Source: Marsupella aquatica (Eukaryota; Plantae; Marchantiophyta). From it: 64,000 bases of DNA. The notes beneath the pieces are model-generated. The model was not told the origin of the DNA, did no database searches, and saw only the letters and a list, made by a program, of their open reading frames with translations. Positions within the stretch are counted from its first letter, which is position 1. Each line of letters begins with the position of its first letter. The stretch is taken from positions 29,990,331 to 30,054,330 of the forward strand of contig OZ316891.1 in NCBI GenBank assembly GCA_973895155.1, read 5' to 3'. A program made the translations under genes and the position numbers. Positions 6,085 through 63,342 of the stretch are shown piece by piece.

Positions 6085-9000
6085 CTATTCAACATTTTCT
6101 TCTCCATTTCCTGGTACCTCACTCTCAATGCATCTAGTAAGATTGTTTTGTGCTTTCTCAGCATGTCTTTTTGGAATTGAAATCAAACCAGATTTTCCAG
6201 TAGATCGCGATTTGAAACACCATAGCACAGTATTCACACTAATTCTCTCTATTTCGTACCCAGGATCACATTCCCATTTCTTGTTCCAACAATATATTGA
6301 GCCATCGTTCTTTTGCTTGCTCACATGCTGGTTGACCTCGTTTTTTTTGCATGACAGGTCGTAACCATCTCACATCACACATGTGTTCTATCTGGTTTTG
6401 ATCATTTGGACTTCCCTCTTCCACATCACTCACCGCTTCTCCCAAATAGATTGGGTAAGTATCCAAGTCGTGGGTGTCTGGTCTCACCATGACATAAACA
6501 CCCTTTGTAACATCAATCCGTGGGTTAAAAACCTCACGTGGCTTATCCTTCCGAGGCCCCACATAGTCTATTTGTGCATCCAACTCACACGCAACATTAC
6601 GGTATGCTAATGGAACATGCTCCCTCCATTTGGATACAGGCCAAAATCCGTGCACCAACTCATTTCCATCTTCCGGAAAATATTGTACTTCTATACCCAA
6701 AGTGCCTCTCACACGGTTCCAATATTCAATCAGTGACTCCCAACTTGTTTTTTGTTCCTCCACAATGTGACTTCTCCTCATGATCAATTCAAAAAAGTGC
6801 ACTTGCTTCAGTAGACCTTCTCGAACCTCCTCCAACACTTTAACCTCTGTCATTGGTAACCTCTTTGGTGTTCCGGTTGGAAGGTTAGGACGTTTCTTGA
6901 CTGTCCATGACCACATTTCAATTCCGCCATTCGGAAGCCACCCTTGATCCATTGCCTTTAGCTTGTATTGCATGCAAGGCATGCCATCCTCTCGAACATA
7001 CAGTCGAAACACTCGAGGTTTCAAATGGCCCACCAATGTATCTCCCCCTTTCAACATATAAGGTGCTCAGTAACTTTTAAAATCAGGCACTTCTTGTACA
7101 AAATGGGGAACAGGATTTGGTTTTCGTGATTTCATTAGTAGCGACATTAAATCTGGGAGAGTATACGATGGCTGCCTCATTAGAGCTTCCGAAAAATTAC
7201 CAAACATTGCATCAACATCTTCATGAGTATGTCCGACCATCAGAAATCCCAAATGAACTTCTTCGAACACCTCTCTCGCTGTCAAAAGTGACAAATATGC
7301 CAAAATGAATCTGTTTTTGTTATCTCCAGCACAATTATCAAGTTGTAACTTCAAGATCCTTGGCAATGGTCTATATAGCTGTGTCAAAGATGATGTTTCA
7401 GAAGCCCCTGAAAAATAAGAAATTTTAACAATCAGAACAATGGCATGCATCTAGATTGTAATCTCAAACACACTATTACTCAATCTCAACCAAAACAATA
7501 TTTGAGATTTACCCACAGCCCACGGGTTGTAGCCTTTCTAAGAGGCTAATATTTTGGATCTAGAAATTAATTTAAAAAATGCGATTAGAAGATGAGATTC
7601 ACTCCTAGAAGGATAGACTAGTTGCAACACCTAATCAATGCGTGTACTTACCTAGACTATTGATATAGTCTATGTCTTCCTTGAATGCATCTTGAACCAT
7701 TTCTCCCAAGACGGGCATTCTTCCAATTAACAAATTTGAAAAAAGCTCTGTAGAATCTGGTCCTTCAAGCAATGATTTCACCATTGGTACCGGATTTTCT
7801 AGCATTCGAAATATTGAATCCAAGGAACCAATGCAGGCATTAGGATCAGCCGGCCACACTCCAATATTATACTGGGCAATTGCTTTTGGACCATGACCAT
7901 GAGTCAAGATACCAGTAAGAGTAACCGGGACCCTCTGCACACCATCCAACGATTTTGGGCATCGTGGCATTCTCGGTAGTGCAGTCTTGCAATGATCCAT
8001 CTTGTCGTGAATCATACACAAGACCTCCTTTGGCCTATGCACCGATTCAAACCTCCAAGCATGATACAACATTCTCCCTTCGGTATGATCTTTGTGATGT
8101 CTGCCCTCATCAACCTTCAAAAGTTCCCTTTCCTCTCTTCCTCCAGTCATTTTGGATTTGCGTTTATTTAACTCACAACAAGTCGTGCACTTTGAGAAGT
8201 TACTCCCTTTCTTCTTTATCCCCACCTCCTTAACGTGATTGTTTCGCAGAACACTCATAGTCGGTTGGGAAACTGGACCAATACCAAACTCTTTGTTCCT
8301 AGAGTTCACCTTCTTTCTCAAATTCTCCCAATTCAAACCTATTGGAAGTTCTCTAAGTACTTGGCGGGTATTGTCATTCATAGTTCGTAACTTAGCTGGA
8401 TGGTTATCTGCGCATTCGTCTATAATCCCTTTCATTGACATAAGCGCTTGGGAAACTCTTTCAGACATTCGTCGTTTTCCAAGATTCCCATGAGTACACA
8501 TAATTGCCCCTGCCCTTACCATTTTCTTCACCTCATAAAACTGACTTCTTCCTTTTCCGTATATCACCCTCCACGCTTCCAGACAAACCCCTCTCCCATT
8601 GGTTCCCTCCATACCAACTATCACTCTACCGCTAACATCATGGAGTGAGTTCACAATAGCAGTAACTTCATCTTCCTTCCGCATCTGATAGCTCTTTGCC
8701 CAATGTTTCTCTCGGAGATTATGTGCAAGGTCACGGTTAAAAAATTGGCAGCATTGTTCCTCACAACAATCCACCTTACTAATGTTTTTGGCATCCTCAC
8801 GGTCTAGAAACTTGCTTTTCTTTGACAGTGAAATGTTGGCTACTTTACTTCTCCTTGTAATGTTCACATAAGATCGCTTTCGACTGGATGCATCAATCTC
8901 TATAGGAATAGTGCCCTTGTTTGGAAAGCTCAACATATGACCTTCACTAGCTCGCAACAAGCTGAGAGGCCAAGGGACAAGACAATTCTTGTATCTAAGG

Positions 9001-9304
9001 TGCTCATTTGTCGCGCCATCAACAAAATCAGTAATGAGTATCCCAATGTGTGTGTCTCCGATGATAATTTCCCCTAATGTTGATCCTTGGGTCACAAAAG
9101 TAATCAGCGCTACAGCAAAATTAACATTTGCTTCATCAAACACTTTCACAACCATCCCAACTTGTGGTACAACTCGTCGGATAGTGCTAGGATCAACTTC
9201 CCCAGGGACACTATCACGGGCACTGTTAATATTGTCAACTTCATCAACATGGACTTCAGGGTGTTTCTCTCTAAAGGGATGAACTCTGAGATCATTTTTA
9301 TCCC
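6085..9304 (-). pseudogene. Sola-like DDD transposase gene B, 3' portion (its 5' end lies beyond the CACTA insertion)
   Basis: Open frame 9304 to 7652 (WDKNDL...CCEEQCC...FSKCTTC...MIHDKMD). GT-AG intron 7651-7408. Exon 2 has QLDNCAGDNKN and FLMVGHTHEDVD. In-frame TGA at 7067-7069; frameshift near 6300-6348; stop at 6085. Confidence 0.85.
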
Positions 9305-11427
9305 AAACACAAGGAAGTTTTGGTGCTCACCTAGGTAGGCAAACACTAAGTAACCAGGGAAAATACAAGATAGAAGATAATTTTGCCGAGTTTCATGTTG
9401 GTGTAACCTGGTACCTACCTGAAGGTAGGGATATGCAAACAACCAAAATGGGACTATTGTGGCGATTCCTAAAATACCGATGTATACAAAGTGGATAGTT
9501 GGTAGTTCATAGATTCACCACCATAGCATGGATGTCCAGAAATTCACAAATGTGCAAGAATTGGGTTAATGTAGGACAATGGAAAACTCCAATGATAAGT
9601 TTGGAGTTAAATTTTCAAATAATTTAAGCCAATTTCTTATCGGTAACCTAACCTAACACAAGGACACTACACCTTATGAACTTCTTCGTTCCACTGCTGA
9701 TGTTCATAGACCAGCTCCTGTTCAGTAGGTGGTCGAGTGCTTCTTTTGCTTGGGATTTGCTTCGACATTTTGCTGGCATCAGAGTGCTGGTTACATTCTA
9801 GATTGCACTATGCTTCAATCACCGTTGATGCTGGTGCTACGTGGTCTACTCGCTTGCTCAGCATAATCATTTTCTTGTTCACGTTTTTGGACCTTATCCT
9901 CCATAGCCCGCAGGCTCCATGCGCTCCGTCCTTTGCTCTCATGCGCTCCGTCGCTACTCTCGATGTCAGAGCCAATGTCTGCTCGACACATCAAGAAATG
10001 AAGAAAACTAACTGTCTTGGCGACCATGATCGTGACCATAACGACAAGCTTGCGGTTACCTCGATCCCTGCCTGAGGATCCGATCCAATGTCTGCTCGAC
10101 ACGCCAAAGAGATGACGAAACACAAACTGATCGACTAGCCAAGAGCTCATCAGGACCCGACTCGAGACTTCCATTTGCGCCACTCTCTGTTTGAATTCAA
10201 ACTTTGAATTCGTCGTCCTCTCTATTTAAGACGATCGATACTCTCCTGTGGATTCATTCTGCTCTCTCTCGCATTGGAATTGCATTTCAGGATTCTCGAG
10301 CTCCTTGCAATTTTACAGTTCACCTATCTTCTTAGCGTTCAGCTCGATCAAGACTCAATCATTGAGAGCCTGTATCTCGTCGTTGATGTTCGTGGCGAAT
10401 TGAGCTCAATTCGTTGTGGGTGTCAGTTCTTCGTAGATATTTTGGGCGAATTGCGAGGAGATTCAGAGGAGGAATTGTTACTTGCTCCGAGGAGATGGCA
10501 CCCAAGGATGTAGCAGTCGCAGCGACTGAAGGCGCTACGGGAGCGAAGAAGGGTCGAGGCATGCCGAAGGCTGTGAAGAGGCATCCCGCATTGAAGGAGG
10601 TCGGTGGAGCAGATGTAGTGGGATCGAAGAAGAAGCACAGAGTTTGTTTAGTGAATATAATAATTATGCAACAAAGGATTAATACAGCTCTTACTATGAA
10701 CTACGTGAGTCCAACTAACATAATAAATTACCTGATCATAACCTGCCTTTGGCTAAGCACTAGAATAATCAGATTGCCAATCATGTCAAAGTGTCCATTG
10801 CAAAGGAATTCCTCTACTCATTTTTAGGACTTCCATTCCTGTCTCTAGTCTTCCTATGTCGAGAAAGGGAATCACAATGTTTTTGCTTACGGTAGCTTCC
10901 CAAATTTCACACCCTTCTCTCACCCGCTTATTTAGCCAACTCACATGGACATTGATGGAATTCTGTGTTCCTTCATCCAGAGTTGCGTCAACAAAGCTTT
11001 CTTCTTCAGGTTCATCTTGGAGTGTATTTTCCATAGAGTCAACATCCATAGCTTCGGCAAGAGATGAACCTCCTTCAGTCCGGCCCTGTGCTAGATCTTC
11101 AACACTCCTTACAACCGCCAGTCTCAGCCTTCCATGTACACGAACCTCCACCACATCATGTATTTTGGGGTAAGTAGGGCATGTATGAAGGCCATATGTT
11201 TCTATATGTTGACGCTGACTTCTGTCTTGAAGTTCCAGGCATACAATCTCAGAGGAACCTCTTCCTGCTTGTCGACTAATGGGCATAAATTTATGCAATA
11301 AACGAGAAACTGGTCGAAAACTGGTATCACCATAGTGTTCGGCCGTGGCTCCAAGCAATGGCAAACCTGAGAGCTTGTCAGTTATCATCTGATTATCAAG
11401 TGATCTTTGTATACTGAACCACTTGGC

Positions 11428-11902
11428 TGTTGAGCATAGACGATGATCGCAACGGCAAGCCCATGAACCATCCAACGCACAATAGTCGACACAAGAGATA
11501 CGTGGTTCACCTCCTTGAGGCTACATCCACGGGAACACACAAGAGAGCTTTACTGAACTCTAAGCCCGTCGGCTATACCGAGTCTCCACAGTGTAAGCTC
11601 TCCCTATCTCTCAAGTGGCTCCATAACAATGAGCCTTGGTTCTACCTCTCCAAGCACACATGCCTCTTATGATATAGTGTGCAATTTAGTTGTACCTAAC
11701 CACATAGTTGTACCTAACCACATAGTTGTACCTAATCACGTAGTTGTACCTAACCACATAGTTGTACCTAATCACGTAGTTGTACCTAACCACGTAGTTG
11801 TACCTAACCACATAGTTGTACCTAACCACGTAGTTGTACCAACCCACGTTGTTGTACCAACCACGTCATACCTAACCTAGACGTAAGAGTAAATACCCAA
11901 CA
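11428..11902 (-). mobile_element. Copia-type solo LTR (475 bp) inside the CACTA transposase CDS
   Basis: TGTTG...CAACA termini; 5-bp TSD TTGGC (11423-11427, 11903-11907); homologous to 19307-19667. Confidence 0.9.
11687..11866. repeat. 18-bp tandem repeat (tagttgtacctaaccaca) ~10 units within the solo LTR
   Basis: Directly visible; produces the VVPNH repetitive ORF. Confidence 0.95.
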
Positions 11903-14900
11903 TTGGCCTCAAAAAATAACTCCTGGTGTCCCAGAAATTCATGGACAAATAAGTCTAATATGACTGCTCTCCAATTCCAACTGTATTCTGGACTGTCCTC
12001 GTCATCTGTCAATACTACCACATGGTCACCAATCCTGAAAAGAGTGTTCCTCACCACTACAGATTTCAAAGGGATAACTTTAAAATCCATGACAGTCCTA
12101 AACAAGGACGTTGCCAGCCCCTGAAGAGCCCAATGCCATTTGACAAAATTGCTGCCATCCTCAGAAAGTAGACGCTTCTTCGCCTTTGTTCTACCTACTC
12201 CTATTCCTCTAGAGAGAATGGAAATTGCACAATGAGAATCGACAGCAAATCTACTCATATTTTTAACTAGTGAAAGAGCCTGCTCTTGTGATGAGACTAC
12301 AACAATACAATTCTCATGCCATTTAGGGCAGGTAAAGTCACGTTTGTCCCTTGCTGCATGCTCAATTGCTCTGGCTCCTGTTGGCCTCAAACGGTTGTGT
12401 GCTTCCAACAGTGTACGATGCTGTGGCAGAAATCCATCATCATCATTCCAAATCATCATGCATGTTTTAGTAAAAAACTGCCTGACGTGATGGGAGGTGA
12501 AAGTTAGCTCCATTTCCTTGTTGTTGGTGGCAGTCCGTCCATAACCAGAGACCATACGTTCGAACCTGTAGCACCAATACACCCAGTGTGGACCATGTTG
12601 TTCGATGTCATCCAACAACTCACCGCTACCTACAAGACAAATTACATCTCATTTGTAAGATGAGTGATCGAGGCTAAGCAGTCTGCAGTTGCCTTGAAAA
12701 AATAGCATAAAAAATTACATCCTAAAATATTTCTGTAACAAACCTGCAACGTGTTCGAGTATAGAGGCATTAACTCCAAAATGCTCCTCACTCCTCACCC
12801 GCCATGAAGCCAACAGACTTCTTGCCTTCTCCAAAGTTGACTTCCTCCACCCCTCCTCCCTACTTTGAATGTAAAAGAGTCTTCCGATCTCAAATAACAG
12901 CATGCCAATTGAACCTAGAGGATTTTCAACTCCTAATCTCAAGCTATATAGTATGTGCGGTAGACAAAATATAACAAATCGAGTATATTCTTCAGCTTTG
13001 AAGTAACCTAGTCTGTCCCCAGGATCTTTCGGCCATCTCCCATCCAGACCTTTAGGTTTTCTGGCAGTCACTTCTGCTAAGGCCTCCTCTAAAACTTTGG
13101 TTTGGGAAGGTGTCAAACTTTTCATCAATTTTGTTACATAGCTCTTGAATAAGTTGAGCGCAAGTATATGCATGACATCATATACTAAATCAGATATCAA
13201 ACAGAAACCAAAGGTATCGCTTAACCTCCAAGCCTTTGCCAACTGGTTAATTCCATGCTCTTGGGATATGCTTACCCTTGAAACTTCTGTTGTACAAAGA
13301 GAGTACCTCTGGGCAGCATCTCTAATGACCGCCAAATCTCGTTTGGCAGGAGGGTACCGCTGCAAATAAGGATTGTTACCATACACAGTAACTCCTTTGG
13401 GCCCTCTTCCTGAAGTGTTTGATTGTTTTTTCCACGTGCCTTTCACTAGACACCTCCTGCACGGTGCCTTCCCCCTCTGGCACCACCCTCCAAATTTGCA
13501 TTGGGCCGGGTGGTCTCCTGTAAATAACATTAGTCTCACCCTACAAGTACAATCTTTTGAGGTGATAAGGTCATGTATTAGCTCTGGCGCATATGAAAAA
13601 TGAAGAGGGAATCCGGCAACTGCCAACATTTGCACGTCTTGGAAAAATGGCTCCATGAAAGCTTCCAAGAAGTGCAATTTAAGCTTGGTGAGTTTTTCAG
13701 TAGCACTGTTTGGTATAAACAGAATGGGAATAGGTTGTATGTCAGAATGGCTACCCACATTCAGTATACTTATCTCCACTGTCCATGTGCTTCTCATAAC
13801 TGAAGATGCTGATTGGAAACCATCCCAGTGAGCCATTAGTGCAATATTGCGAGGGTCCCCCTGGGTACAATAAGAAAAACAATTTAATTAGCATGAATGA
13901 TCGAAGTCAGAAGGAATCCAAGAGAAAAGAATGATTCTCAGATTAGCAAACCATCACAACGACAACGACAACGACATTCAGAGGCCCATTCAGAGGGAAG
14001 AAAAACAGTTATTCAGATTAACATGCATGTACTGACAGCGCCGCATTCAGAAACGATCAAAGAGAGAGAAACAGGTTTCAATATTCTAAGCATAAGAGCA
14101 TGTAATATATGGCAGCTGGCTGCATTCAGATCGAAGAAAGCAAAGAGTGCAATCTAATTAAACAGGTTTTCAAATAAAATTTATTAGAAGTATCATGGAG
14201 ATTTTCAGAGGGAAGTAATTGAGAGCAGACAAATTCATGGAACATCAACGTACATCATTTGGCTAGTACCTGAACATATACTGGCCTTATTTGGAGCCGA
14301 TTTCCGCAAGTGCACACAATGTCATACATGTGGATGTCTCCCACCAGCTTCAATCCTTGGTTCAAAAGGTCGCATTTCTCTGGGTAGGTAGCATAGCCTT
14401 TCCAACAAGTCTGGCATACCACAGGTAACTCATAGGTGCAACACGGGTCCCAGAAATAGGAGTTTTGTTTGGCTTTCGAGCCATCCCACCATTCGCTAAT
14501 TACATCGTCTTTGAGACTCCCAAGCTGGAGCCAACGAGCTCTCTCCCTCCACATGGTTAGTATTTCATGGCAATAGCTTCGTGATCGACACAAATGAGAT
14601 ATCAATGGCGCAATAGGCAGGTAATCAAACCTTAACATATCTTTGCGCTTGATTCTACACCCGAAGACATCACATCGCTCGCTGCAGGTTTCACAATCTC
14701 TGCACAAAATATTCTTGCATAGAGAGCACTTACAACTCTTGCTCGTTGTTTTTGCTTGGTCATCCTGGATGCTTGGTCCAAAGGCCTTAGGTTCGTGAAA
14801 GTTGTCGTCAGCCCCCAAACACAGACGCCATTGATGTGGTTGAGGTGCGCCCATCACTTTGTAAGCAGCCGCCAAGCCATTGAAAGTCCCCAAGGAAGGT

Positions 14901-16001
14901 ATTCCTAGTGGACCACCATCCCATTGAGTACCAGCATACCTCAGCAGTGAGCCAAGGGGTACATTCCTGTAGTCAATGACTGGACTTGCATCGATTGGTT
15001 TGAACAAAGCTCTCAAAATCTTGTCCTGCAAGTCCATAGAAACTTTAGCAGAATCCAACATGGACTGGAGTCTCCATGTCTCTCTATAAATAGCCTCGCT
15101 CAAAGTCAAAGGAATTTCGTTGAGTACAGCGGTTGAGTAGTCGTTGCATCCAACATTATCAGACAATGGCATAAGAGTTTCTGCACCATCCACCCCATCC
15201 TCTGTTGCACACCCAACATCAAAAGCACAATAGCTTGCTGGGATTGCATCAGGGTCACTTGCATACGTAGACCGAGGGCCATTGACAAAACCAAGCAACG
15301 GTCTGAGGAGTAGCGTGCTTTGTATTCTCCATTTGGAAGTCCTTGACAGCTTTGCAAAATCAGATGGAAGATCTGATTGTTGACGTGAACAATCTCCAAT
15401 CACATCAGAGGACTGCCCTTGCACTATTCTATCTCTTGGTCTTTGGGTCGACACTGCTGCCTGGTGCAAAGGAGGGTGGACCGGAACATGCCGCGCATCT
15501 ATGAGAATGCCTTGTTTATCCTTGAGTCTATGATGACCTCTAGTTCTTTTGCTCACCAAATCAAAGCCGTCAGACATTCGTGAACATCTATACTTGCAAT
15601 CACATCTGACTTTCAAACTCAAATCAAAATCCTCCATGTTGCGCAAGAGTCGTAGACAAATTTTCGCGACAAAAAAAGAGTAATGGACAAGTCTGGGCTG
15701 CCCACTACGTACGTACTAAGTTGTCAAGGTCTATAGTATACTTCTGATTGAGTCATTCATTAGCTTCACAGGTCCTGATCCTGTGCGGTCCCCGGCCTAC
15801 CCTTATCGCAGCCCAGAATTGACTCACAGCCTGGATGTGCTGGGATTTGGTGCTGGGATGTGGTGCATTGCATTGAAAGCATATTTGAGCACTTGTGGGG
15901 CCAGTTAATTGAAAAACAAGCCTACGGTAGTACTATACGTGAACCCAGCTTTGGCCTTTGGGCACATGTGGGGCCAGTTTATCAGTTCTTTGGCGGGCCC
16001 C

Positions 16002-23704: not shown

Positions 23705-24810
23705 TTTTATCTGAGGACCAATGCAATACTACTCGGTAGTTGCAATTACAATCCCTCTACCTACATGTAGGTCCACTGGTTTGATGTTATATATACCATC
23801 GTAAGTAGTTTCCTACTTATATATTATATTTATATTTAGAATAATATAGCAGAGTTCTTTGGTGGGGGCTTCCAAAGTGGTGTGCGGGTACTTCTAGGTT
23901 GCTTGGACTTGGATTGGTCTTTGTTTGATTATATATATCACTCTCAGATTATAATATGGACTACTTTTCCCCCCTGCCTAATGTTTGGCTTCCGTTGAAT
24001 CCTCATTATTAATAAAATTTAATCTGTTATTTCTTTACTCCCATTGAAAAAATAGGAGCAGAGCCGGCCTGTTATTGGCAGCATCTCCCCCTAGTAATTT
24101 CATTGACAGTCTGGTATGTTCTGGGATGGCGTCGAAACTGCCCGGCCCAAATGCAATTCATGATGAGGTTTTGGAATTTACTGAAACATCAATAAATAAA
24201 ATAGTCAACTGAACATATTCAGAGTTTGGAATTTACTTAAACTTCAATAAAGTATATAGTCAACCCAATTTGGCATATATGCTCAAGTACATTCACTACT
24301 TTTAAGAATTACAGGCATTGCGCTTCACAATTTGACTTATGCTAGCTTGAGAATTCAAAGTTTACTTTAATAGTAGTATTTCGTAAGTGCTAGATAGGCC
24401 TCCCGCCATGTATCAGTATACGTAGACAGATCCTACCGGTGCGGCCTTGTATTGCAAATCATTGTCCCAGACAAATAGTTGAATAGTCTACCATGCTTCA
24501 CGGAGAAATCTTTGGCTTTTAAATGCTAAAGACATTAAGAGAGCCAGAGCACGGTTTGCCAGATAGATGCCCGATATATACTACTATTCGGAATTTGAAC
24601 TTCCCGCTTGATGTAGCGCGCGCCTGCGTTTGCGCCCACGTTTGGAATCAAATCCCATTCGACTCTTTTGGGGAATTACATTTTTGAATGTTAGACTACT
24701 TGAATCAACTAAGTGATCACGTACAAACCCCGAACCTCCCTATGTTTGATTGCACTTCCTGAGTTGCAAAATCTTGTCTAGCTGCTGCTTGTCAATCTGC
24801 CGGCCTAACC

Positions 24811-29506: not shown

Positions 29507-29735
29507 AAACAAGAAAGGATCCAATCAAGTGCTTCAAGTATTCTCCATCAGAAAATATGAACTTTTCATCCAAACATTCAATAACCTCCACCATTACATG
29601 ATCCGGACCTAACTCCACCGTGTGACAAATCCTGGTGGGATCACTACTAAAAATCTTTCCCATCCCAACCAATATCTTTGAGCCAAACAATCCGACCATG
29701 TCACCCACTTCAAAAGACAGGATGGTCGTAGACAT
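29507..29735 (-). pseudogene. 5' end of transposase gene B (first beta-domain), displaced 20.2 kb by the CACTA insertion
   Basis: MSTTILSFEVGDMVGLFGSKILVGMGKIFSSDPTRICHTVELGPDHV resembles the N-terminal repeats of gene A and joins 9304 in frame once the element is removed. Confidence 0.85.
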
Positions 29736-44330: not shown

Positions 44331-44551
44331 GAAGAAAATAGAATGATCTGGTCAACTAATGACACTGTGAGGTTAGAGAGTGACCCACATCACCTCAAAC
44401 AATTTAATGAGTACGCTGACGTTGTTTTTCAATAAATGTAAGGACTCTTTTTTTCTCATGCATATTTAATGTTAATGTTTTATTTAGTTTATTGCCTCTT
44501 TTGTTTTGTATTATTTAATGCTCAATTGCTGACATGTTTTGTGTTGTGCAG

Positions 44552-47821: not shown

Positions 47822-47870
47822 CCAATCAAAAGTGGACACGTGGGCCAACCCCTCAACAGACACTATAAAA
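47822..47870 (+). promoter_or_regulatory. Putative promoter of transposase gene C (CCAAT, G-box CACGTG, TATAAAA)
   Basis: CCAAT 47822, CACGTG 47837, TATAAAA 47864; ~150 bp upstream of ATG 48015. Confidence 0.5.
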
Positions 47871-48014
47871 GGGCCACCGCCGATAAGTTTTTGGCGTCAT
47901 TATCGAGAGTAGAGTTTTGGGAGTTGTGTTCTTGGAGCAACATTCTGTCCGTTGAGCCTTTCGTTTTCCCTGATTGTGGGAGGAATGCAAAGCCCCATAG
48001 TGTCTCGGATAGCC

Positions 48015-51000: not shown

Positions 51001-51556
51001 TTACAAACAAAAAGAAGTGATTCAACACCACCTGAAACCTGCACAATGGAGTTTTGATTGGAGTTGGCCCAAGGTAAACGTACAGAGAGAACTTCCGAGT
51101 AATCCTACGGAAGCAGCAATGGAACCTAGCTTGGTTGATAAAGTAGCGGGTGTGAGGACAGTCATGTATTCCGGAAGTCGAAGAAAAGTCACGGAAATTG
51201 GAGACTTCAAGGATCTAGAGGTGAATACTAAATTTGCAATGATATGTGTAGTAGCCCATCAGGATCCCAAGGGAAGACCATTCTGGATGGCAAAAGTGAT
51301 TGAGATTCTCACAAGAATTAACGACATCCCGGAGCGGATTAAAATCACTTGGTATGCAATGGATTCGGAGGAAGAGTCTGCAATTGAAGGCAAATATTAT
51401 CCGGAGAAAGAGGCTTCGTCTAGCAAAGTACTGGAGGATGAATTGTCCCTATCAGAAACTGCCGTTTATGCGTATAACTTTGCGTTATTGGCAAATAGTA
51501 CTCTCCCTACAAACAAGATGAATCATTCAAAATGCAATGGAGACTGTAGTCATTGA
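48015..51556 (+). pseudogene. Sola-like DDD transposase gene C, one intron (49656-49959), several stops/frameshifts
   Basis: Ser/Arg-rich N-terminus, then CCDNYC, FSTCAPC, ICIDGMD, YLQLDNTARENKN, FLLVGHTHDQID and a C-terminal PFWMAKV..ITWY; split across ORFs 47952, 49253, 49917 and 51017. Confidence 0.88.
49755..49912. repeat. ~58-bp intronic tandem repeat x3, each carrying (C/T)GATAAATTTATCG
   Basis: gtttgaatactgaacccgataaatttatcg recurs with palindrome starts at 49771, 49829 and 49887. Confidence 0.9.
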
Positions 51557-52010
51557 TAGTCGAAGCTAGTTTCAGGTTTAAGTTATAATGGTTATCGTTC
51601 CCATGAATATGTACAGTGGTTATCGTTCTAGGACTATGTACTCCGAAGCTATAATGATATCTTTTTTTTTAAATAATTGCAATGACAAACCAGTTAGAGA
51701 ATACAATGCTGCCCAATAAGATTATCGACAACTCCATTCCCCCAGCAGGAACACCGCGATAGTCCGATATATGCAAAGTCCGATAAATTTATCGCATTAA
51801 TAAATGTGACAAAGGTTCTTCCTCATGGAATATAGAAGTCGATAAATTTATCGACAACTTCATTGGTGATTGACATTATCCTAACGAGCACACGCAACTA
51901 ATCTAATAACATGTCGTTGAGATCATCCTCATTTGGTGTTCTGGGAGGCTCTTCCTCAGTTTCTTCTTGTTCCTCTTCGGTCTTGTAGATAGGCAGTAAT
52001 TCCAAAGTCA

Positions 52011-55000
52011 TGAAGAAAACCGGAAAATTTTTAAATTTTTGAAGTAGTTAAACTATATTTGCTGATAACTCGAGTAAACTAAACTCTGCCGAAGATTAAG
52101 AGTTTAAGAGTTGAAGAGTTGAAGTGTTTAAGAGTTTACGGGTTTACGAGTAAACCCTACTTTAATAGTTTAAGAGTTTAAGAGTTGAAGAGTTGAAGTG
52201 TTTAATAGTTTAAGAGTTTAAGGGTTTACGAGTAAACCCTACTTTAAGACTTTACGACTTTAAGAGTTGCGACTTGCGAACTGGCGAGCCCCGCGATTGT
52301 GACAGGCTACGGCTAACTCCAACGGGACTTTGCAACAAAACGAGGAGCAGGCCTTGAAAGGGAAGGAATGCAAGACATAGGCGCTCACTCCTGACTTCTC
52401 TTCCGCTGCATCTTTCATCGCTCTCGACTCCAAACAATTCTTCACGTAGCTCAGTGAGCAGAATTTGAGCTATGGCTGACTTGAACGCTGATGCACAGTA
52501 TCGTGTTCAAACTCTGGCAATTCCTAAGAGTGTGGTCGCTCGAATTCCTTTGGCGCCCGACAGTTGTGAAAATTTGAGAACATCGTTATAGCAGCTCGGA
52601 TTGGAACATCTACTCGCAATCCCTTGGAATGTGGAGCTCGACTCTTATTTACAGGATTTTGTGAGAGGATCACTGATTGCCCCTGAATTTCGACAAACCA
52701 TTCGAGCTCGGCCAAGTTTATGGACAGTTGAGCAAGTAGCTCATGCCTTCCGCTGCCCCTTAGATGGAGAAGGATTATATTCAAAGAAAAAAGATTTGTC
52801 CACTCCTTACTTTTCAGGGATTCGCCATCCTACCAATGGCTGGAATGTGACACAATGTACCTATCCGGATTTGAGGATTCTTTTAGAATTTCTAGTGCCC
52901 ATTCTCCATCCGAAGAGACCAACTATCTGCCCTGTGGCATTGGCGAATACTATCGTAGCTTCTCACAGTGGAGCTATTCAAGTAAATTGGGCGTTGTTAC
53001 TTTTCAATGTGATGCACGATCAGGTGAGAAGTATGAAGGCAGGCAGACCTACTTGTCTACAAGTCTATCTATCTCAGCTGTATCAAGCACATGACTGTTT
53101 ACATCCGGAGGAGAAAACAGAAAGGGGATTACTTCTGATCGAGTTGGACATTGAGGAAGAAATTAGTGTAGCAGAATCAGAACAGGACATTCTGCTGAAT
53201 TCCACTGATCAGGATGTTAATATGGAGGATGTCTCGATAGATGGTTCGGAATTTCCCCCTGAACACAACATGGAGGTCATTTTATACTCTCCAAGAGAAA
53301 TCAGTGGAACAGATCGACTTGAAGCTGAAGGAGACGAGATTTTTCCTGAGCAACAAGAAGTCGTTGTTGAACCAACTATTACTGCCATACGAGGAGTCAC
53401 CATGCCCCCTTTTTCGAAAGCAGAGTCAAATCAGCAGCTTATTGATAAGTTAATCTCTCTCTTCGGTTGCAGTGATGTTGAACTCTACGATGTTGTCTGT
53501 GATTTGAGATCCGAGGCAGTTAGCTTATCCTCTCCATTTCCAGATCAGCTAACCCCTGTCAGGACCGCTTCTCCCATTGAGAGGTCAGCACCAGAAGAAT
53601 TTGTTGCTCTCACTCCTACTGTCCCACAGAATCTACCTCCAGAGCCAAGTGAACCTGTCTCAAGGATAGGAAACACAAGTTGTGTTGCAATTGTAACTGA
53701 CCTACTGGAATTGCTTCAGTGTGAACCTGAGGAGATAATCTCTGTGGTTAGTGACTTAATTCCGAAGTACACAGAATTCAAAGGCCCTTCCAACCCGGGT
53801 GACTGCATTTATAGTCCAGATTCCAATTATGAGCCAACCGAGGGACCTATTTATACCCAACCACAATATGAACATCCTTCTGTTAGACAGGATCTTCCTG
53901 AGGATTCTGATCCACCCTCTGATTTTGATTCCATCCGATCTTATGACAACTCTGTCGAGTCGTCACCAAGGCAAGGATTTGAGGATGTTGACACTACCTT
54001 AAGATCTGATCCAAATTTAGTGGCAGTTGTCACCTCCTCTACTCAAACACCCCGGTATTCTGTCATTGAGAAAAGATATACACGACATCCAGAGTCTCAA
54101 GTGCAGAGGTACGTGGAGACTTGTAAGATAATGCAGGCCAACAGACCCCCAATTGGAGAGTTTTGGAGATACTACTACCTTAAGAAGACTGAGGCCAGTT
54201 ACATATTTGACCTCAGAAGTTTCGGAACTTCAAGAGTGGAGATGGCTCAATTTGATGAGTTCTGGGCTGACTCAATCTACTTCCGACCCATCCTTGCTAT
54301 GATGCTACTTCAAGGGGATGTAGAAGTAGAAGATCCAGATTTGGTTTTGGCCTATTTCGGGAATTTTGCAGCTTACGCTCTGGACTTTGTGATTTCTTTT
54401 CTCATGCAGAGTAAGAAATCCACTTCTCACCAGAACTCTTACATCCCACGAGAGCCGAAGGTTGTCCTTGTTTCCACCAGTTCCCTAGCTGAGAAACAGA
54501 GGATCTGGAATAATGTCACTACTCAGACCCTGGCTCATTTCAACCGATATTTTAAGGATGTCAGATGGAGACTTCGACCCTTCTATTCCAGGATGATGAG
54601 TAGTGATGAGTTCCTGTTTCATTATCCTCAAGTGTATGCTGCCACCTGCAACAACTATGATGTACTAGGGATGTACAGAGAAGCTCTTCGTATAGATTCC
54701 TGTTATTTGATGAAGAGAATGCCTTTGATGTATCCTGAGAGACAACTAAGGTGCCTACCCTACTCTCGAGGATCACCACGTCAGACTAAGCTGATGGAGG
54801 TAACACAGAATCGGACTGTCACCTACGTGGAGCTGCTCGAACCCGATGATATTCGACAACAAGCTTGAAGGAGACTATCTTTTTAGCTAGTATTGAAAAG
54901 TATAGTACTTTTACCAATTTTTCTAAATGTGTTGTAGAGCTTTAAAAGCTATGAGACTTCTTTAGGCTGTAGTCTGTACCTAGGAAACCCTGCTGGAAAA

Positions 55001-56590
55001 ATTTCAGAGTTTTCCGAACCAGGAGTAGAAAGTTAAAAATAGTTGAATCTACTCAATTTTTAGTATACCGAAATTAAGAGTTTAAGAGTTTAAGTTTTTA
55101 CGTTTTTAAGAGTTTAAGTTTTTAAGAGTTTAAGAGTTCATACTTAGCCATTTTTTCCGGCTTTCCACTTATTGAATCGTCGTTTTGACTTTTTGAGGGT
55201 TATGAAGAGGCATGTCTCTTCGACCCTGTGACCTCTTATTCTGTAGTTCATCACTATTTATACCTCTTCCCCTAGTGTAGAGAGATGGTTAAGTTTTGCA
55301 GTTTTGCCTCTCCCTTGTGTTAAACTAGTTGATCATGAATCTATGAGTTCGAGATCAGGTTTAACATTTGGAGAGACTTACCTCCTTCTTGTATTTTGGA
55401 ACCCAAATACTTGAAGTAAAACCTCAGTTATGAATCTCGTGAATTATAATGTCAGATTCCGCTTTGGTGACACATTGTAATCTCACAAGTTCTTAGAGTT
55501 AACTCATTGAGTTTAAGTTACATTGGAAATGATGTTTTCACCTTCATGTTGCTTAGTACCATCTAAATGCTGAAGTATTTATCCTTTTAGATCTTGACTA
55601 AGTATCACTTAGGAAGAAAGGTCAAGACATGTTGCCGGCATTTTAAAAGGATACTCTAGTATGCAGTTTAGATCTGAAAAGCCGTGTGGATTTGGATTTC
55701 CTTAAAGTCATTCCATTATTACTTATGTCTAAGGAGTAACCTTGGTCTATTCCAGACTCCCTTAAGCATACTCTGAGAGATTTTTCCTTGTGTTTTGTTA
55801 ATTGCAATCTTTTGCTTAATTGAAGGTTATCTGATGTTGAGTTATCATCAAAAACTACTCACCGCTGTGGAGCGATCTTCAAAGTACCTGATTAAAGTAG
55901 TCAAGATTGATTACTATGTGTGACACAAGAGCTTAAGGCTTTATTTTTAGTTTATTTCATCAAACCAACCCAATCTTGTTCTTAACGGGAACGAATACCG
56001 AGTTTAGAGACGTAAAAGAGTTCTTTTGATTCTCTATAGCAAACTACATGAGATTTTTGGCGCCGCTGCCGGGGAACAAATCAAGGATGGTTTGAAGTAC
56101 AGGCAGTGAATGCCAAAAGGAGGTTAATTCAGTGAATCTGGAATAAACAAAAGAAAGGTGGAAGTTGACCATGGAACCCCAAGGAGAATGGGAGTTCCCT
56201 CCATTACAAATTCGATCTTTCACAATGGAAAATGCACCAGAGGCATTTAGGGAGAGATTTGGAGGTGAAACTCCTCCCTCAATTTTGGAAAGAAAGAGAA
56301 AAGCTAAAGCCAAGAAGGAAAGACGAAATGGGGCTTAGTGGGGGAATATCCTTCCCAAGAAAGAGATGGTGAGGAAAAGCAGACCTCAGAAAAGAGAAAG
56401 AGCCTTGATTAGGTCAAGGGATAATCAAACACACACGATTATCAGTGCCACTGCAAGAGAGAGAACAACTATTTTGAGAAGGCAGGTGTCCAACATCAGA
56501 GGAGGAAGCTACTTTTGGGGTGGCGAATTGGTGAAGGTTGACTCCTGGGACACCAATATTTTGTATGATTGTGTATTTGTATGCAATCGC
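52011..56590 (+). mobile_element. Truncated Gypsy (Athila/Tat-like) LTR-retrotransposon-derived insert; boundaries approximate
   Basis: PBS-like TGGCGCCGCTGCCGGGGA at ~56058-56075, shortly after ...AACTACA. ttaagag-type repeats at 52095-52265 and 55074-55140. The segment lacks the host element palindrome. Confidence 0.65.
52472..54868 (+). pseudogene. Retroelement-type accessory ORF (plant-mobile-domain-like N-terminus), one premature stop
   Basis: ATG 52472, in-frame TAG 52589, then 755 open codons. The N-terminus (IRARPSLWT...LLEFLVPILHPKRPT...NTIVAS..VNWA..YLSQLY) resembles, from memory, repetitive bryophyte TE proteins. Confidence 0.6.
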
Positions 56591-56663
56591 TTAGAAACCA
56601 ACAAAGGAATGCTAAAGCCGATAAAAATCTTGCGATAGAGCATGCTGTGAGAGGAATGCTTAC

Positions 56664-58865
56664 CGCGTCACTCAATTTCTCCGCCCATATGCCAAGGACC
56701 GAGACATTTGTTTCGTTGGGAAACATTTCTCTACATGTTGCCCAATCTGGCCTACCAGATATCTGCAAAAATAGTTTCTTCACCTTGGCAAGCTTTTTCA
56801 ACTTCTCACCTTCCTTGTGCATTTGATCCAAAGTGATCACCTTCCCGATAACCCTATTCAAGAGACGCTTGACATGCTCCTTATTTGACAGTCCTTGGAG
56901 ACCTCGAAATGAATTTAAGTTGAGGTCACCAGCAAGTTTATTCATTTTAATCTCCCTTACCGTCAAAGGTTTCACCTTTCCCTTTGCGTTCGTCGTTGCC
57001 ACAATTTTTTTGGGTTGTCCTAAGACAATACCTTTCTCCCGCATCTGGAAAATCTGCTCCTGAAGATCCCAAATTTCACCTGTTTGGAAAGCAATTTGGA
57101 AAGCCGGATCATGTTTGGCCATGGAGTCACGAACTCCTGGCGTGTACTCCATCATGCATTCTTGACAACATGCTTCGCGGACATCTTTAGTCGAGCCCAC
57201 ACCCATTTCAAGGAAAATATTGTGACAAGCGCGAACTTGGTCAATTTTAGTCATGTTCTTCCGATACTCCTGGTCATAGTTATGCTGGAAGCCTAACTTT
57301 CGGACCTCGGATCTCGTAAGCCCAGCGTAAACCCAAGCTTCCAGCTCACCATATATTTGCTTCCCGTACATTTTAAACAACTCAGACTTTGCCCGAGCAC
57401 CATGATTCCCTCCAATAATTCTATACTTCCATACCCTTGACTTCAGGATGTCCCAATCTGCGGTTGTGGGACAATCCTTCGGATCCACACACAGCACGAA
57501 CGGGGCACTGAAGTTGGTGGGGTTTTTCATGAGAAGTATCTTGATATTTTCCACATGCAATCTATCCACTGGTCTAATCAAAGTTGTCAAATCCCCCTCC
57601 TCATCAAATATGAGATTGTCGACATGCAGAAGCACAGTTGTCCTTTGCACCCTTCATTGCATCAGAAGACTGAGCTCTGCCTTGATCGCGTCCGTCTCAT
57701 ACATCGAAAGAGCCGTCTCCTCCTCCTGATCAGCCTACAAAAGCGTTGCAAATTCAATTAAGGAAAGAAACTGCGAGATTTTTATCGGAGTTCGCATTTG
57801 TTCAACATAACTCCACAATCCGCAATTCAGGAAATAAATAGCGAGATTTTTATCGGATTTCGTGTTTGTTAAACAGTACAACGACGTAGTACTTACCAAT
57901 GGCGTCGTAGGAACCGCGACTGGAACTGATGGAATTGACGGAGCTCTATCTACTTCTGCAGCCACCGTCTCAGTCCAGCCAGTCCTCTTCCTCTTTGTGC
58001 TAAGTCCAGAACCAGATGGCCCGGATCCCTCGGATCCTTTACTTTCGCTTGGTTTAACGGATGGTCCTTGATGGTTGCCCCGGCCTCTCCCACTACCGCC
58101 AGTTTCCTGGCTCTTCTTCCCACCGTCAGAGGTTCCCGCGGCATCTCCCTTGCCGCTACCTCTCCCTTTCCCTTTTCCACTTCCCGAAACCCGACCAGAA
58201 GTTGTAGGTTCGTCCACGTCAATATGTGTAGAGGATTGCAATGGTTCTTTCCGCCCCAATATTTTATCGGCATTAGAACCACCGCTTCCACTTGAACCTG
58301 GTTTCTTGAAAACAATTTTGCGGACAGGTTTGAACTCTTCACCCACAAGTCTCTTGTACTCTGCGTTCACCCTTGGAAGCATGATGGCATCACAATCTTG
58401 CACATACTGGCCGATCCAAGCCGAACCCATAACATTCATCTCTCTTGCTGCCCGAACATCGGCAACAAGGGGATCTTCTGGATAACTGTCCATCGATTTC
58501 TCATCAAAGTTATCGAGAGTAACAATGAGAGATGTGAAACCCTTGCGCCCACACATTGTCAAGAAACTAAGGCCCTCTGTCAACACTTTTCCCTCCCCGT
58601 GGCCAACCATGAACTCGACAACGGCAACAGCAATGACAGGGCCATACGAAACATTAACCTTTGCCGATTTTTGCAACTGGACCCAAAGGATTGGGGTAAC
58701 ACAGTCTTCGAAACCCGTGGACTGTAATCTGGCGTCACGGAAGTACCATGACTTCTTGATACACTTGATCTCTTCACAAATGTCTTCACTTGTCCAAATT
58801 GCATTGGTGAGGCTTGTCATGAGACTTTCTGCCTCAGCAGATCCACTCTTTCCACTAGCAGCCAT
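56664..58865 (-). pseudogene. ParB/Srx-like domain gene of the 15-kb element; 3' part lost at the retro insert
   Basis: Exon 1 58865-57897, intron 57896-57735, exon 2 57734-56664 with in-frame TGA at 57654-57656. Motif LHVDNL...IRPVDRLHVENIK...PFVLCVD...YRIIGGNHGARAK...LGFQHN. Confidence 0.75.
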
Positions 58866-59088
58866 GGAAAAGTCTGCAAATAAACAAATTCCAATGCAAA
58901 GAGCGATAAAATTATCGCCGCCAATCTCACAGCACATCTGGACACGACATCTCATCACACAAGGACAAAGAGACCGATAAAATTATCGCAAAAGTGAGCC
59001 TTCTTTAAATTGACGGCCGAGTGTACAGGTCGAAGAATCAGCTACGGAACCCTAAATCCAAAACCTTAAGGTTCCCTAAACCTAAACC

Positions 59089-59802
59089 CTAATCATAGTT
59101 GAACCTCGCCAGAGCGAAGCGTTCGATCCGCTTCTTGGGCCATTGGGGAATATGAGTGACGCAATGATCATAAGCCCACAGCCAATGGAAATCAACTTCA
59201 CCAGTCTCAGGATTCACTACTGCTACTGAATACCGGCGTGACGGAATGTCACGACAAGCATGTGTGCAACATGGACAGATCTCACCATTGGCAAGGACGT
59301 TCGTCCACAGGCAACTTACATAGATCAAGTTAAAGAGCCCACAGACCGGCTGGGGGGGGAGTTGACGAATCTTGTATGAATATAGTTTCCCACCAGTGTC
59401 AATAAAAAACTCGGTGGCAAGAGGATTGTCCAGCTCGTCAATCATATCCTGAATCTCATCGAATGCTCTACGTCTGTTGTCGGCATAGAATTCTGGCTCA
59501 TAAGCAGGATTGCCCTTCACAACATGACAATAGTGGAGTATAAAATGTCTTACTGCACCGGTTTTCAGAAAGAGTAGGATAACTCTTCTAGAAAATCCAA
59601 CATATCTATCCCACCGAATATAAATTTCTCCCCCTACCTGATCTACGTAGAAGTGAAATGCGTTATGGTAAAACAGTTTTACTACCAGCCTGCATATCTT
59701 TAAAATTAGTGACTCATCCAGCCTCCTTAGCTGGTCCAGCATGGCTCCATTCCCCCATTCTGGAGGATCCGGGAAGGGTACAAAAATGCGTCGCTCAAGC
59801 AT
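59089..59802 (-). CDS. Cargo ORF of unknown function (237 aa; C-terminal CPCC..C...DHC)
   Basis: Intact ATG-to-stop ORF with protein-like composition, inside the TIR-bounded element. Confidence 0.55.
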   Translation of the reverse strand: MLERRIFVPFPDPPEWGNGAMLDQLRRLDESLILKICRLVVKLFYHNAFHFYVDQVGGEIYIRWDRYVGFSRRVILLFLKTGAVRHFILHYCHVVKGNPAYEPEFYADNRRRAFDEIQDMIDELDNPLATEFFIDTGGKLYSYKIRQLPPQPVCGLFNLIYVSCLWTNVLANGEICPCCTHACRDIPSRRYSVAVVNPETGEVDFHWLWAYDHCVTHIPQWPKKRIERFALARFNYD

Positions 59803-60094
59803 GGCCTGATCACCGAATAGAAATCAGGAATAAATTTTGGAGAACATACTAATTACAATTCTACAAGTTTCATCCAACTTTACAGTACCTTGTATAACGG
59901 GCTGTGAAGCCAATGCACTTGTCAGCTAATCGTCCGAAGAGGCGCAAAAAAATACACTCTGGACCACACAACTCGAAGTCAGGGGAGGCAGAGTCAATTA
60001 TATTCAAAGTGTTTCTTTACAAGCACCCAAAATCGACTAGAGGAATGAGGAGTGCGATAAATTTATCGGATGTTCGCTGCAATGCCTCATCCAC

Positions 60095-60646
60095 TCAGAC
60101 TCGTCCATGCCATGCAAGAATTGTCCGCTTCCCGCTTTCTCCAAGATTCACCCAAACTCTAAGAAACGCATCTAATCGGTCATACGAGAAGCACCCAAGC
60201 ATATCTATGGGAGGGAGGAAATGAGTTTCCTCTCGGAAGACCCTAGCAATATGTAGGTCAAATGAGAGAAGGACGGCATTAGGAATGCTTGCGAGCATTT
60301 TGTTGATGTCATTGATCTCACGGACTGCATATTTCAATAGCGCCCAAAATCATGTACCAACAACAAGATGGTTCCATTTCTTCGAGGTGGCTCCAAGACA
60401 AATGATTGTTCTCATTCGAGTCAGTCGTTCTTCTAGTAGAAGTTTTAGGTCAAGGCCAAGGTGTTCATCTTGTGTGCAAGACAAGGCTAGGAGGGGCCAA
60501 ATGTGAGATTCAACGAGTTCATCGGGAAGTCCATTCAACAAACTTCCGCATTCCACACCGGGCACTTTTCCTCGAATATATTTCCTACGCTCGTGGGCTA
60601 AAACGGATCCCATCTTTGCAATGATTAGATTCTCCGATGCAGCCAT
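60095..60646 (-). pseudogene. F-box-like cargo gene with an in-frame stop
   Basis: LLNGLPDELVESHIWPLL...CLGATSKKWNHLVVGT*FW fits the F-box pattern; TGA at 60350-60352 is in frame with ORF 60095-60337. Confidence 0.55.
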
Positions 60647-61778
60647 GAAGCAGAGCTACCAAAACCACCAATAAAAATACCTTCAATCACCAGGTGTAAC
60701 CAAACACAGTACCAACCCTGCACGACAGTTTAACGATTAGGACTCGTGACGTATTATATTCGCTGCGCAAGGGTAGGACTTGTTTATTTAAATATGTCCT
60801 TCCAAGATGCGCCTCAATGAAAAGGTCGAAACACTCATCGTGAAAGGTTCACCCAAGGGTCTTCGTTCCAAATCTTACAACAGAAGTGAGCCTGTTTGTG
60901 GTACTTGTTATCAAGACGACGACAACAATAGTTACAAGAAAACTCCAAAGAATGTAAACACGCCGTTAACATCAACCTCGAACGAATTGGAACTCGTGCA
61001 TCATTCATTCCGCAGAATTCAATGCGGAGAGGATTCTGCCTATCTCCAGGATCAGTACCACCCATCCACAATGCTCCTATACCGATGGGGAGAACTTTGA
61101 GTCGCACGAGTCTCTTGTACAACCGGCGTGCACGTTTGACACGATTTTCAAGGAAGACAGCCATTTGTCACAATACCTGTTGTCCACGGAGTGCAATCGA
61201 CCTTCCGTTGTGCCTCCTGAACCCGGCAACACTGCGACATCAGAGATGAAGATGAGTCTCCAAACAAAACAAAGGAAAATGATTCTCACAGGAGGATGCG
61301 ATAAGTTTATCGCACTCCACATTCGAATTGAAAATATGACTTCCTCAAACACCTAAGCCCTGAATTCAATCTTTCACAAAAATGACAACTCCGATAAATT
61401 TATCGGATTCTCAATTACTCCTCTTTCCATGAAAGGAATGGAGACTCCGATAAATTTATCGGAATGAAGGCAACACCTCTCTAAACACATTGGATCAAAT
61501 GATTGCAACAGAGGAATGCAAAATGCGATAAATTTATCGCAGTCCGCTCGGATCTGGATATTTTACACTAAATGACTAGTTAGTCTTACATGGAGAACTT
61601 GAACAGGAATGGCTGTTCCGATAAATTTATCGGGTTTTCGGTAGAAAGAGTCAAATCGCTTGGGAGGAATGTAAGACTTGATGGGAGTTTGGTATTCGCT
61701 CTCAGTCAGGAGATATTTGCTCTGGCGAAAGCAAACATTTTATGGGCAGCCTGCTCCTCTTTATATAGGAGACGCTCT

Positions 61779-61841
61779 AAACCATGGTTAATTTCCCCTT
61801 AACCATGGTTAATTTCCCCTTAACCATGGTTAAGTTCCCCT
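61779..61841. repeat. 21-bp subterminal repeat x3 carrying palindrome TTAACCATGGTTAA, next to a minus-strand TATA (61760-61767)
   Basis: Directly visible. Confidence 0.85.
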
Positions 61842-63342
61842 TTTACCTGGGTTAGTGCATGGTCGTTCCTGGATTACGCGGTTCGGACCAAGTTACTCGC
61901 AGTTCGGACTTTTTCACTGACGGAATGTAAAACCCGATGCACGTATCGCTCCCTGCATTCCCGCGGCGATGCAATGGAGGAAAGTGGCGTTTCAGAGAGT
62001 TTTTGCCAGTTTTATCGGTCATTGCATTGCCTTAGAAAAAAAACGGGATCGGGCTAAACGAGAACTCCGACACACTTCTCGGTCGGTCCGAAATCGTGTT
62101 TAGCACACGTCGGGATTGGAGTTGCGCTTATAGCAGTGACCCAAACAGCGACAGAGAATACTCTGAGGGACTGAGGGTGTGTCAATCAGCGCCAACAAAT
62201 CATAGTGAGTTTATCTAGATTTCCAAAATGCTGACTGGTTTCTGGTGAAGTTCCTATCACGCCCTCCAGTCTGAAACAGAGCGCGGGAGCAGAGCAGATT
62301 AGAGCAGAGCAGAGCAGAGAGTGGAAAGCTCCAAAGTCTAGTAGTTTAGTTGGGACACAACCCATACAGTGCTATTTCTCTTGTTGTCATGCATGGTGGA
62401 GCGGTACCTCTTGTTCTGCTCTCTCCTCCTCCACTCTGTCTCTGTGAGCGCTTGCTTTGGTCGGGGCTTTGATGCGTCTTTTGATTTAACTACCTTCGTG
62501 GGTTGAAGCATTTTGTTGAAGCTCCGCGCATCAATGTCAGCTATGTTAAATTTATGCTTTGTAAGGTCAAGTTGTTCGCACCTAGGTCAAAGCTCTCGCG
62601 CGAAGAAATTCTAGCTTTAGCTTGCTACTACATTTGGTAAAGCTTAGCTTTAAAACTCTATCTGTGCTTGGGCTTTTCGAGCAGTCGGTGATCATTGAAT
62701 TTGATGTACTGAAGTTTTGGGAATTATGGCTCCTGTAGTTAGCTTGACCTATCATTCATTTTGTTGTAACAGGTTTGGAGGTGGGCCAAGGCCGGGGCTC
62801 AACGCTTGTCTACTAGTATCGTATTTGGCCGCGGGGTTACATCACTCAGATAAGGTGACACATCATTTTGCATATTAATTGTTTCTCCTTCTCAGCTATT
62901 TTATGATATGATTTGCGACTACTCTCATCTACTTTGTAATTGCCAATGCAGTCCTGTAGTGTCATTCCGAGTCTCGTTTCTTTTATTGAATGGATTTGTT
63001 TGTCTTCTCCGCAGGTGAAGTGCAAGGGCTGCCCGGAAAGTGTGAGTTGTCTTGAAAGTTTAGGCACATTCAGGTCCGGGATTCAGGTTCTTGGCGTCAA
63101 TTGTCGTGACTGTGAGTAGAAGTCCCAGTAGAAGTCAATCTATAAGCAATATGTCACGTGAGACAAAGGTCAATGCCATATGGACCCTTTCTGTGCAAGT
63201 CATAGGGGCATTTGTGTGCTCTGCAGTCAGATTGTGTACTGAAAATTTACTGTGGACTCTGTTGGGTTTGCTTAGCCAACTATTTTGATTTTTGCATGAA
63301 ATTTTGGAGCGATTCATCGCTCTTGCGCGTCCACCCCTAGAG

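Follow-up and report, generated by a model that had tools for sequence, protein, structure and literature searches.

Two broken Sola-like transposons of a liverwort point to a ParB–methyltransferase family that may mark its own element

The stretch analysed here (the window) comprises 64,000 nucleotides of the liverwort Marsupella aquatica (assembly GCA_973895155.1, contig OZ316891.1, positions 29,990,331 to 30,054,330 of the forward strand) and is filled with repeat DNA of eukaryotic type, the introns being of the GT-AG type. It holds three transposases matching DUF7869 (A, B and C), each with three acidic motifs. We take DUF7869 as a marker of Sola elements, and we assume that Sola DNA transposons combine terminal inverted repeats and a 4-bp target duplication with a DDD transposase. 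Ends of this type are present in elements B (19-bp repeats, AATG) and C (32-bp repeats, TAGC), with a terminal AAC common to both; a definition of the Sola target site was not found in the accessible part of PMC5751038 (here and below, cited sources are described from their accessible text). An earlier note, made from the sequence alone, had recognised one three-part design in two regions of the window, and this design holds: both B and C possess inverted ends, a DUF7869 transposase, a ParB-fold gene on the opposite strand and a palindrome of their own. The genes are not intact, though: all four, the two transposases as well as the two ParB genes, are broken (Table 1). On balance, we interpret B and C as Sola-like transposons with a second gene from a ParB–methylase family, the product of which probably binds the palindrome of its own family and would methylate the element as a self-mark.

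The empty site of element C (joint 46961-62101) was found in contigs of all four runs examined, from two studies; near-identical contigs in the four runs suggest that C is a family of many copies. Its palindrome, CGATAAATTTATCG, occurs 17 times in the window at up to one mismatch, always within 46966-62100 (17/17), and is absent from the remaining 49 kb, while 100 shuffles gave a mean of 0.00 and a maximum of 0; the motif is thus as element-specific as had been claimed. At up to two mismatches, 0/18 sites fall in coding DNA, although coding sequence makes up 58% of C, and sites occupy both ends, the transposase intron, the space separating the two genes and the region upstream of the ParB gene, with variants in both introns of the latter. 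The notion that sites are spread throughout the non-coding DNA applies to C but not to B, where they are uneven and none lies near the ends.

The ParB gene of C, which the earlier note placed at 58865-56664, is present there but extends further, its last exon surviving as a remnant at 52008-51899. The anticipated ParB/Srx fold is predicted for exon 2 by a model with a predicted local distance difference test (pLDDT) score of 61: the top nine VIA matches among 48,161 chains were all of ParB/Srx type, the best being PadC (Z 9.7, root-mean-square deviation 2.6, 99 aligned) and KorB following with Z 8.1, and Foldseek ranked KorB, Noc and ParB first (best E 1.4e-3). In B, the fold was confirmed by profile comparison only (HH probability 94.6%; score 56.6 against a shuffle maximum of 32). 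Matches of the helical part of C were weak (Spo0J, E 0.095; helix-turn-helix (HTH)-like structures, Z 3.5-4).

What had been regarded as a plain DNA-binding protein has, in related loci, a C-terminal N6/N4 DNA-methyltransferase domain that the earlier note missed, shifting the likely output to DNA marking. A metagenome scan confirmed five related loci (L001-L005) of 191 candidate stretches, and all four that were long enough (L001-L003, L005) have a third exon, which encodes a beta-class N6/N4 methylase; L003 carries the same convergent transposase as C. These four exons match PF01555, three of them above the Pfam cut-off, with motif IV preceding the S-adenosylmethionine-binding motif I, and display the motifs D[VI]PY, NPYQKP and DLCCGTGST (G to R in one locus). 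The solved structures nearest to this exon are beta-class amino-methylases (E 5e-13). In the related loci the exon is under strong purifying selection, with ratios of nonsynonymous to synonymous substitution of 0.07 (L003/L005) and 0.055 (L001/L005), the other four of six pairs being saturated at synonymous sites. The accessory gene in complete relatives of C is, as predicted from these sequences, a fusion of ParB and N6/N4 DNA-methyltransferase. Besides, the sequence of a relative, P0010, goes from exon 2 directly into exon 3, which fits the predicted splice and a single ParB–methylase polypeptide.

Neither copy in the window has a complete catalytic domain. In C, the methylase exon has been replaced by a retroelement-like fragment of ~4.5 kb, only the tail and stop being left; the tblastn match of this remnant to L003 exon 3 is low-complexity, with position and stop in agreement. 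That the exon might be hidden within the fragment was ruled out, as no sequence match was found, and domain searches of the fragment returned no family match; its primer-binding-site-like motif near 56058 is presumably of Athila type. B, in turn, lacks D-x-P-Y and carries a diverged methylase-like domain, which is likely inactive. A relative of B's protein, P0188, is open at 55% identity, showing that this divergence is old and conserved.

The family is widespread. Our search gave 339 clusters at E 0.001 or better, and those named among the 20 looked up were from Chara, Riccia, Adiantum, Ginkgo, Branchiostoma, Ptychodera, Holothuria and Clastostelium. PF01555 was matched by 11 of 42 long relatives, chosen by length among 150 matches listed (10 above the cut-off; named were Chara, Riccia, Adiantum, Ginkgo and marine invertebrates), and a custom methylase profile, built partly from the same long relatives, by 22 of the 31 with enough C-terminal length. 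The catalytic motif reads DFPY in Chara and DPPY in two distant members, and is decayed in others. A first search found no longer homologues among 1704 candidates, a result limited by its sensitivity, since a profile search found long fusions. In a quick tree, B's ParB sat on a very long branch and could not be placed. Relatives in viral contigs were found in none of 60 stretches, and phage records (n=301) matched only the methylase part of P0059, none covering 80%; neither search thus revealed a direct prokaryotic donor of the fusion. No RNA data set was listed with a match, which has no bearing on expression. As to possible DNA-reading parts, the first ~190 residues of exon 1 (window 57896-58865; L001 643-1689; L002 393-1208) are a conserved domain of no known family and a candidate second DNA-reading module. 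Besides, 56900-56930 aligns weakly with the Spo0J DNA-binding region; one position there varies between families, which we take to be a parS specificity residue, and it fails to separate L002 from L003.

The palindromes of C and of four of the loci have a common frame, SAATR-N7-CGA-N8-TCG-N7-YATTS, often complete on one side only, around a family-specific core, namely TAAATTTA in C, GACNNGTC in L001, L003 and L005, and TCCAAACA in L002. No cross-occurrence was found between the three core types. Palindromes were present in 4/4 loci with introns, 1 of 44 sites lying in coding DNA, and AAT[AG] stood exactly 7 nt outside the core on 70/124 sides, with other spacings reaching at most three per locus; beyond that, the loci show no alignment with C in their non-coding DNA. 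The three loci alike in core are also closest in protein sequence, which fits co-evolution of protein and site and cannot separate ParB from transposase.

Element B, whose bounds are set by its inverted repeat and duplication alone, unites a transposase and a ParB gene 29 kb apart, as the earlier note had assumed: the 19-bp repeat is perfect and flanked by the 4-bp duplication, and an origin of the two genes from different elements was ruled out by these common ends. In a control, 2 of 1700 random window pairs reached 19 bp, both being this very pair of repeats. About 20 kb of nested DNA separates the main part of transposase B from its likely first exon, the position of which would place the transposase and ParB genes head to head before the nested insertions. 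Of the palindromes reported for this region, the literal 18-mer has no exact copy in the window (best 2-4 mismatches), whereas a degenerate form has 19 distinct sites in B and a single weak one outside; chance expectation was 0.04 for a related pattern, both patterns having been drawn post hoc. Thirteen of the 19 belong to the ParB gene, twelve in its upstream array and one in its first intron, and the one site not listed in Table 1 is weak and coding. The B palindrome is unrelated in sequence to the C-type site. A role of the palindrome as a component of the terminal repeats was rejected for both elements, whose terminal repeats hold no sites. The NIF/FCP1-like phosphatase domains of B (43749-45061) apparently lack, by eye, the usual catalytic motif; speculatively, they could connect the protein to RNA polymerase II.

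Table 1. Coordinates of the main features in the window
Feature	Position	Strand	Remarks
Transposase A	2735-5494	+	DUF7869 match
Element B, Sola-like DNA transposon	5643-45564		39.9 kb including nested insertions; target duplication AATG (4 bp)
Left terminal inverted repeat of B	5643-5661	+	19 bp, perfect; mate 45546-45564
Transposase B, main part	6085-9326	-	DUF7869; broken; one intron
B palindrome	7511-7534		Intron of transposase B
Transposase B, likely first exon (N-terminal repeat domain)	29463-29735	-	Four-repeat profile, i-E 3e-4; inferred
Four B palindromes	29980-30396		Upstream of transposase B first exon
Twelve B palindromes	38099-38669		One 50-bp tandem array directly upstream of ParB gene
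ParB-like gene of B	38760-45175	+	Broken by stops and frameshifts
ParB domain of B (GGQH)	about 39423-39790	+	Profile comparison
B palindrome	40012-40035		First intron of ParB gene
Diverged methylase-like domain of B	about 40740-41436	+	Weak similarity
NIF-like domains of B's ParB gene	43749-44258, 44666-45061	+	After acidic repeats; end of gene
Right terminal inverted repeat of B	45546-45564	-	19 bp
Element C, Sola-like DNA transposon	46966-62100		15.1 kb; terminal inverted repeats 32 bp; target duplication TAGC (4 bp)
Four C palindromes	47284-47715		Left non-coding end
Transposase C	47985-51556	+	DUF7869; one intron; broken in window copy
Four C palindromes	49684-49900		Intron of transposase C
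Two C palindromes	51781-51853		Between 3' ends of transposase and ParB genes
Putative remnant of lost methylase exon	51899-52008	-	Acidic tail and stop; tblastn to L003 exon 3, E 9e-5
Retroelement-like fragment	52009-56580	+	758-amino-acid open reading frame; primer-binding-site-like motif near 56058; right edge approximate
One variant C site	56619		ParB-gene intron 2
ParB gene of C, exon 2	56664-57733	-	ParB/Srx domain (GGNH) and helical HTH-like part; in-frame stop 57654-57656
Two variant C sites	57774-57855 (starts 57774, 57842)		ParB-gene intron 1
ParB gene of C, exon 1	57896-58865	-	Conserved N-terminal domain, no assigned family; low-complexity linker
Two C palindromes	58904-58988		Directly upstream of ParB gene
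Six C palindromes and one variant with full outer frame	60055-61960		Right non-coding part

In the mechanism we envisage, the ParB/HTH part would bind the palindrome of its family as a dimer, in introns and promoters, a step that we consider quite probable. The fused methylase would then mark nearby element DNA. We lean towards an enzyme active on DNA, with N6-methyladenine (6mA) a more likely product than N4-methylcytosine (4mC) because motif IV starts with Asp, and an initial Asp is associated with N6-adenine enzymes (PMC8885841). Finally, promoters and introns of the element might be kept open against host silencing by 5-methylcytosine (5mC), either by the mark or by the bound protein, a step that seems possible to us but somewhat doubtful. 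Lacking its methylase exon, C would rely on complete relatives or on binding alone. More tentative still is the full scheme, in which a ParB dimer would read a spaced palindrome with a common outer frame and a core serving as family barcode, the methylase would write 6mA or 4mC against 5mC, and the methylase-less C would ride on complete relatives. CpG observed/expected (o/e) ratios ranged from 0.70 to 1.30 in the genes and ends belonging to C itself and from 0.81 to 0.86 in the four loci, whereas the insert within C had 0.46-0.53 and other regions of the window 0.39-0.59; they were near the GpC ratios in C and the four loci, and about half of them elsewhere. This contrast fits self-marking, as indirect and confounded evidence.

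On the other hand, a number of observations weigh against this interpretation. The exon 2 model is of middling quality and gave no Foldseek match under E 0.001, and HTH_ParB was matched by 4 of 21 family members (best E 0.011). Where canonical ParB has the Box II sequence G-x-R-R, the family has G-x-H-(G/S/T), with Arg after GxH in 3 of 79 sequences of a redundant set and the register inferred. ParB and VirB require the Box II arginines for binding of cytidine triphosphate (CTP) (PMC10245682); their apparent replacement renders a sliding clamp doubtful and leaves the spreading considered in the earlier note, if driven by CTP, unsupported. Motif IV differs from the canonical DPPY. The methylase-like domain of B did not match the custom methylase profile, gave an HH probability of 6% over the S-adenosylmethionine motif (score 26.5, where shuffles reached at most 21.6) and yielded a model with pLDDT 43 and no significant fold match; its ten best Atlas family matches share the N6_N4_Mtase family/clan at scores of 0.84 or lower. 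As to the CpG contrast, both age and the averaging of many copies in metagenome contigs confound it, L004 has an o/e of 0.57, and of the 18 listed transitions that are private to the copy in the window, 9 lie at CG, so that this copy looks methylated by the host. Finally, tandem copies of the sites are not independent, coding constraint alone can keep motifs out of exons, and ParB and transposase are linked in every locus, which is why the motif cannot be assigned to one or the other here.

In the main rival explanation, unlikely in our judgement, it is the transposase that recognises the palindromes, whether to pair the ends or for self-activation, and the ParB–methylase gene is separate cargo. 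Site clusters of C do lie near both ends, and transposases and TnpA are sequence-specific activators of their own copies (10.64898/2026.08.24.746577), yet the terminal repeats of B and C hold no sites. Nor does B have any near its ends, which also disfavours the end synapsis that the earlier note had considered, and 13 of its 19 are concentrated around the ParB gene, in the array before it or in its first intron. The palindrome-like tandem of 12 units that precedes transposase A, in an element with no ParB gene in its visible part, would favour the transposase, but A runs off the window and its gene content cannot be judged; red-algal ParB genes, moreover, adjoin inverted-repeat arrays in an unrelated transposon superfamily. 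Alternatively, ParB might bind the sites but act structurally, by pairing or compacting the element or through KorB-like self-repression, with methylation incidental. This would accommodate the many copies of C, though the window copy lacks the methylase exon, the decayed catalytic motifs in B's domain and in several animal relatives, and the absence of a methylase match in 9 of 31 long relatives; we hold it to be improbable in view of the methylase exon of the four loci, which keeps its motifs under strong purifying selection. That the palindromes lack an element-encoded reader, being binding sites of host transcription factors or mere by-products of tandem duplication, is a very improbable explanation: many copies do sit in short tandem duplications, but a spaced frame is kept across families with saturated synonymous sites and unalignable introns, while the core changes by family.

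If self-marking by a ParB–methylase protein is correct, plant transposons would write a bacterial-type DNA mark on themselves, and their protein–site pairs would be natural tools for site-targeted methylation. According to the Bostrychia preprint, no transposon type other than VANDAL is known to bind its own sequence and to modify it (10.1101/2025.02.11.637652). Several families with different cores give matched protein–site pairs, so that binding specificity and chemical mark become directly testable, and the protein family is placed in streptophyte plants (Chara, Riccia, Adiantum, Ginkgo).

Further repeats surround and interrupt the two elements. Transposase A has three N-terminal repeats and is preceded by a 27-bp tandem array of 12 palindrome-like units (window 1119-5494 for both together); element A extends beyond the window edge, no ParB gene being seen in its visible part, and B is inserted ~150 bp past the stop of transposase A. 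Nested in B are a CACTA-like start at 9665 with Transposase_21-like open reading frames (9665-15715; E 0.007, below the cut-off), for which a second end was not found, and dense, shuffled short repeats at 32000-34950. A multi-exon gene at 24763-28691 (+) has a duplicated exon and an N-terminus that is SAM-like by eye, and gave no Pfam match; P0065, a distant family member, has a SAM domain. Element C contains three small minus-strand open reading frames (59089-61164), one F-box-like by eye, with no Pfam matches, and the repeat hosting the C insertion has one with an RNase H1 N-terminal domain at 63289-63600 (Cauli_VI, E 5e-14).

The ParB–methylase transposon design has already been published for algae (PMC12477816; 10.1101/2025.02.11.637652); new here are the plant lineage, the frame-plus-core site code and the methylase-less copies, and literature searches, with subscription papers and supplements outside our coverage, turned up nothing on land-plant ParB–methylase transposons or a frame-and-core code. 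Judged from its published architecture, Sola1-1_Ec32 of the brown alga Ectocarpus is likewise a giant Sola element with nested insertions and a ParB-like plus N4/N6 methyltransferase gene on the opposite strand, for which the same self-marking role was proposed without a test; its main text, as far as accessible, describes no palindromic sites (PMC12477816), whereas the present case covers several families of plant type and adds a site code, data on selection and a copy that lacks the methylase. The red-algal (Bostrychia) Plavaka elements PAG2/PAG3 resemble ours in a ParB-like accessory gene with adjacent inverted-repeat arrays and a PF01555 methylase in the same element, and self-modification was proposed, again without a test (10.1101/2025.02.11.637652). 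They differ in their EnSpm/Plavaka transposase, in the fusion of ParB to a 2-oxoglutarate (2OG) oxygenase and in a methylase located in a separate SET-domain gene. Arabidopsis VANDAL/VANC is similar in its layout, with an accessory protein beside the transposase and with family-specific motifs that tandem repeats have multiplied in the non-coding DNA of introns, intergenic stretches and element ends; yet these are Mutator elements with a different protein, a short motif (YAGTATTAY) and a demonstrated function, no methylase is described in the accessible text (PMC5735166), and we found no kinship between the ParB–methylase protein and VANC. With bacterial ParB/parS, KorB, Noc and VirB, the last an anti-silencer (PMC10245682), the family shares the order of a ParB/Srx domain and a helical, putatively DNA-binding part, and palindromic sites, whereas its Box II arginines are apparently replaced, ParA is missing, a methylase is fused and the site is longer and bipartite. 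N4CMT (PMC8885841) and MpDN4MT1 (10.1101/2021.02.12.428880) are bacterial beta-class methylases in eukaryotes as well, but these are host genes with SPPY that make 4mC, ParB being unmentioned in the accessible text, while the enzyme predicted here has D-x-P-Y and resides in a transposon. Other clades of ParB-linked methylases have been described (PMC4738411).

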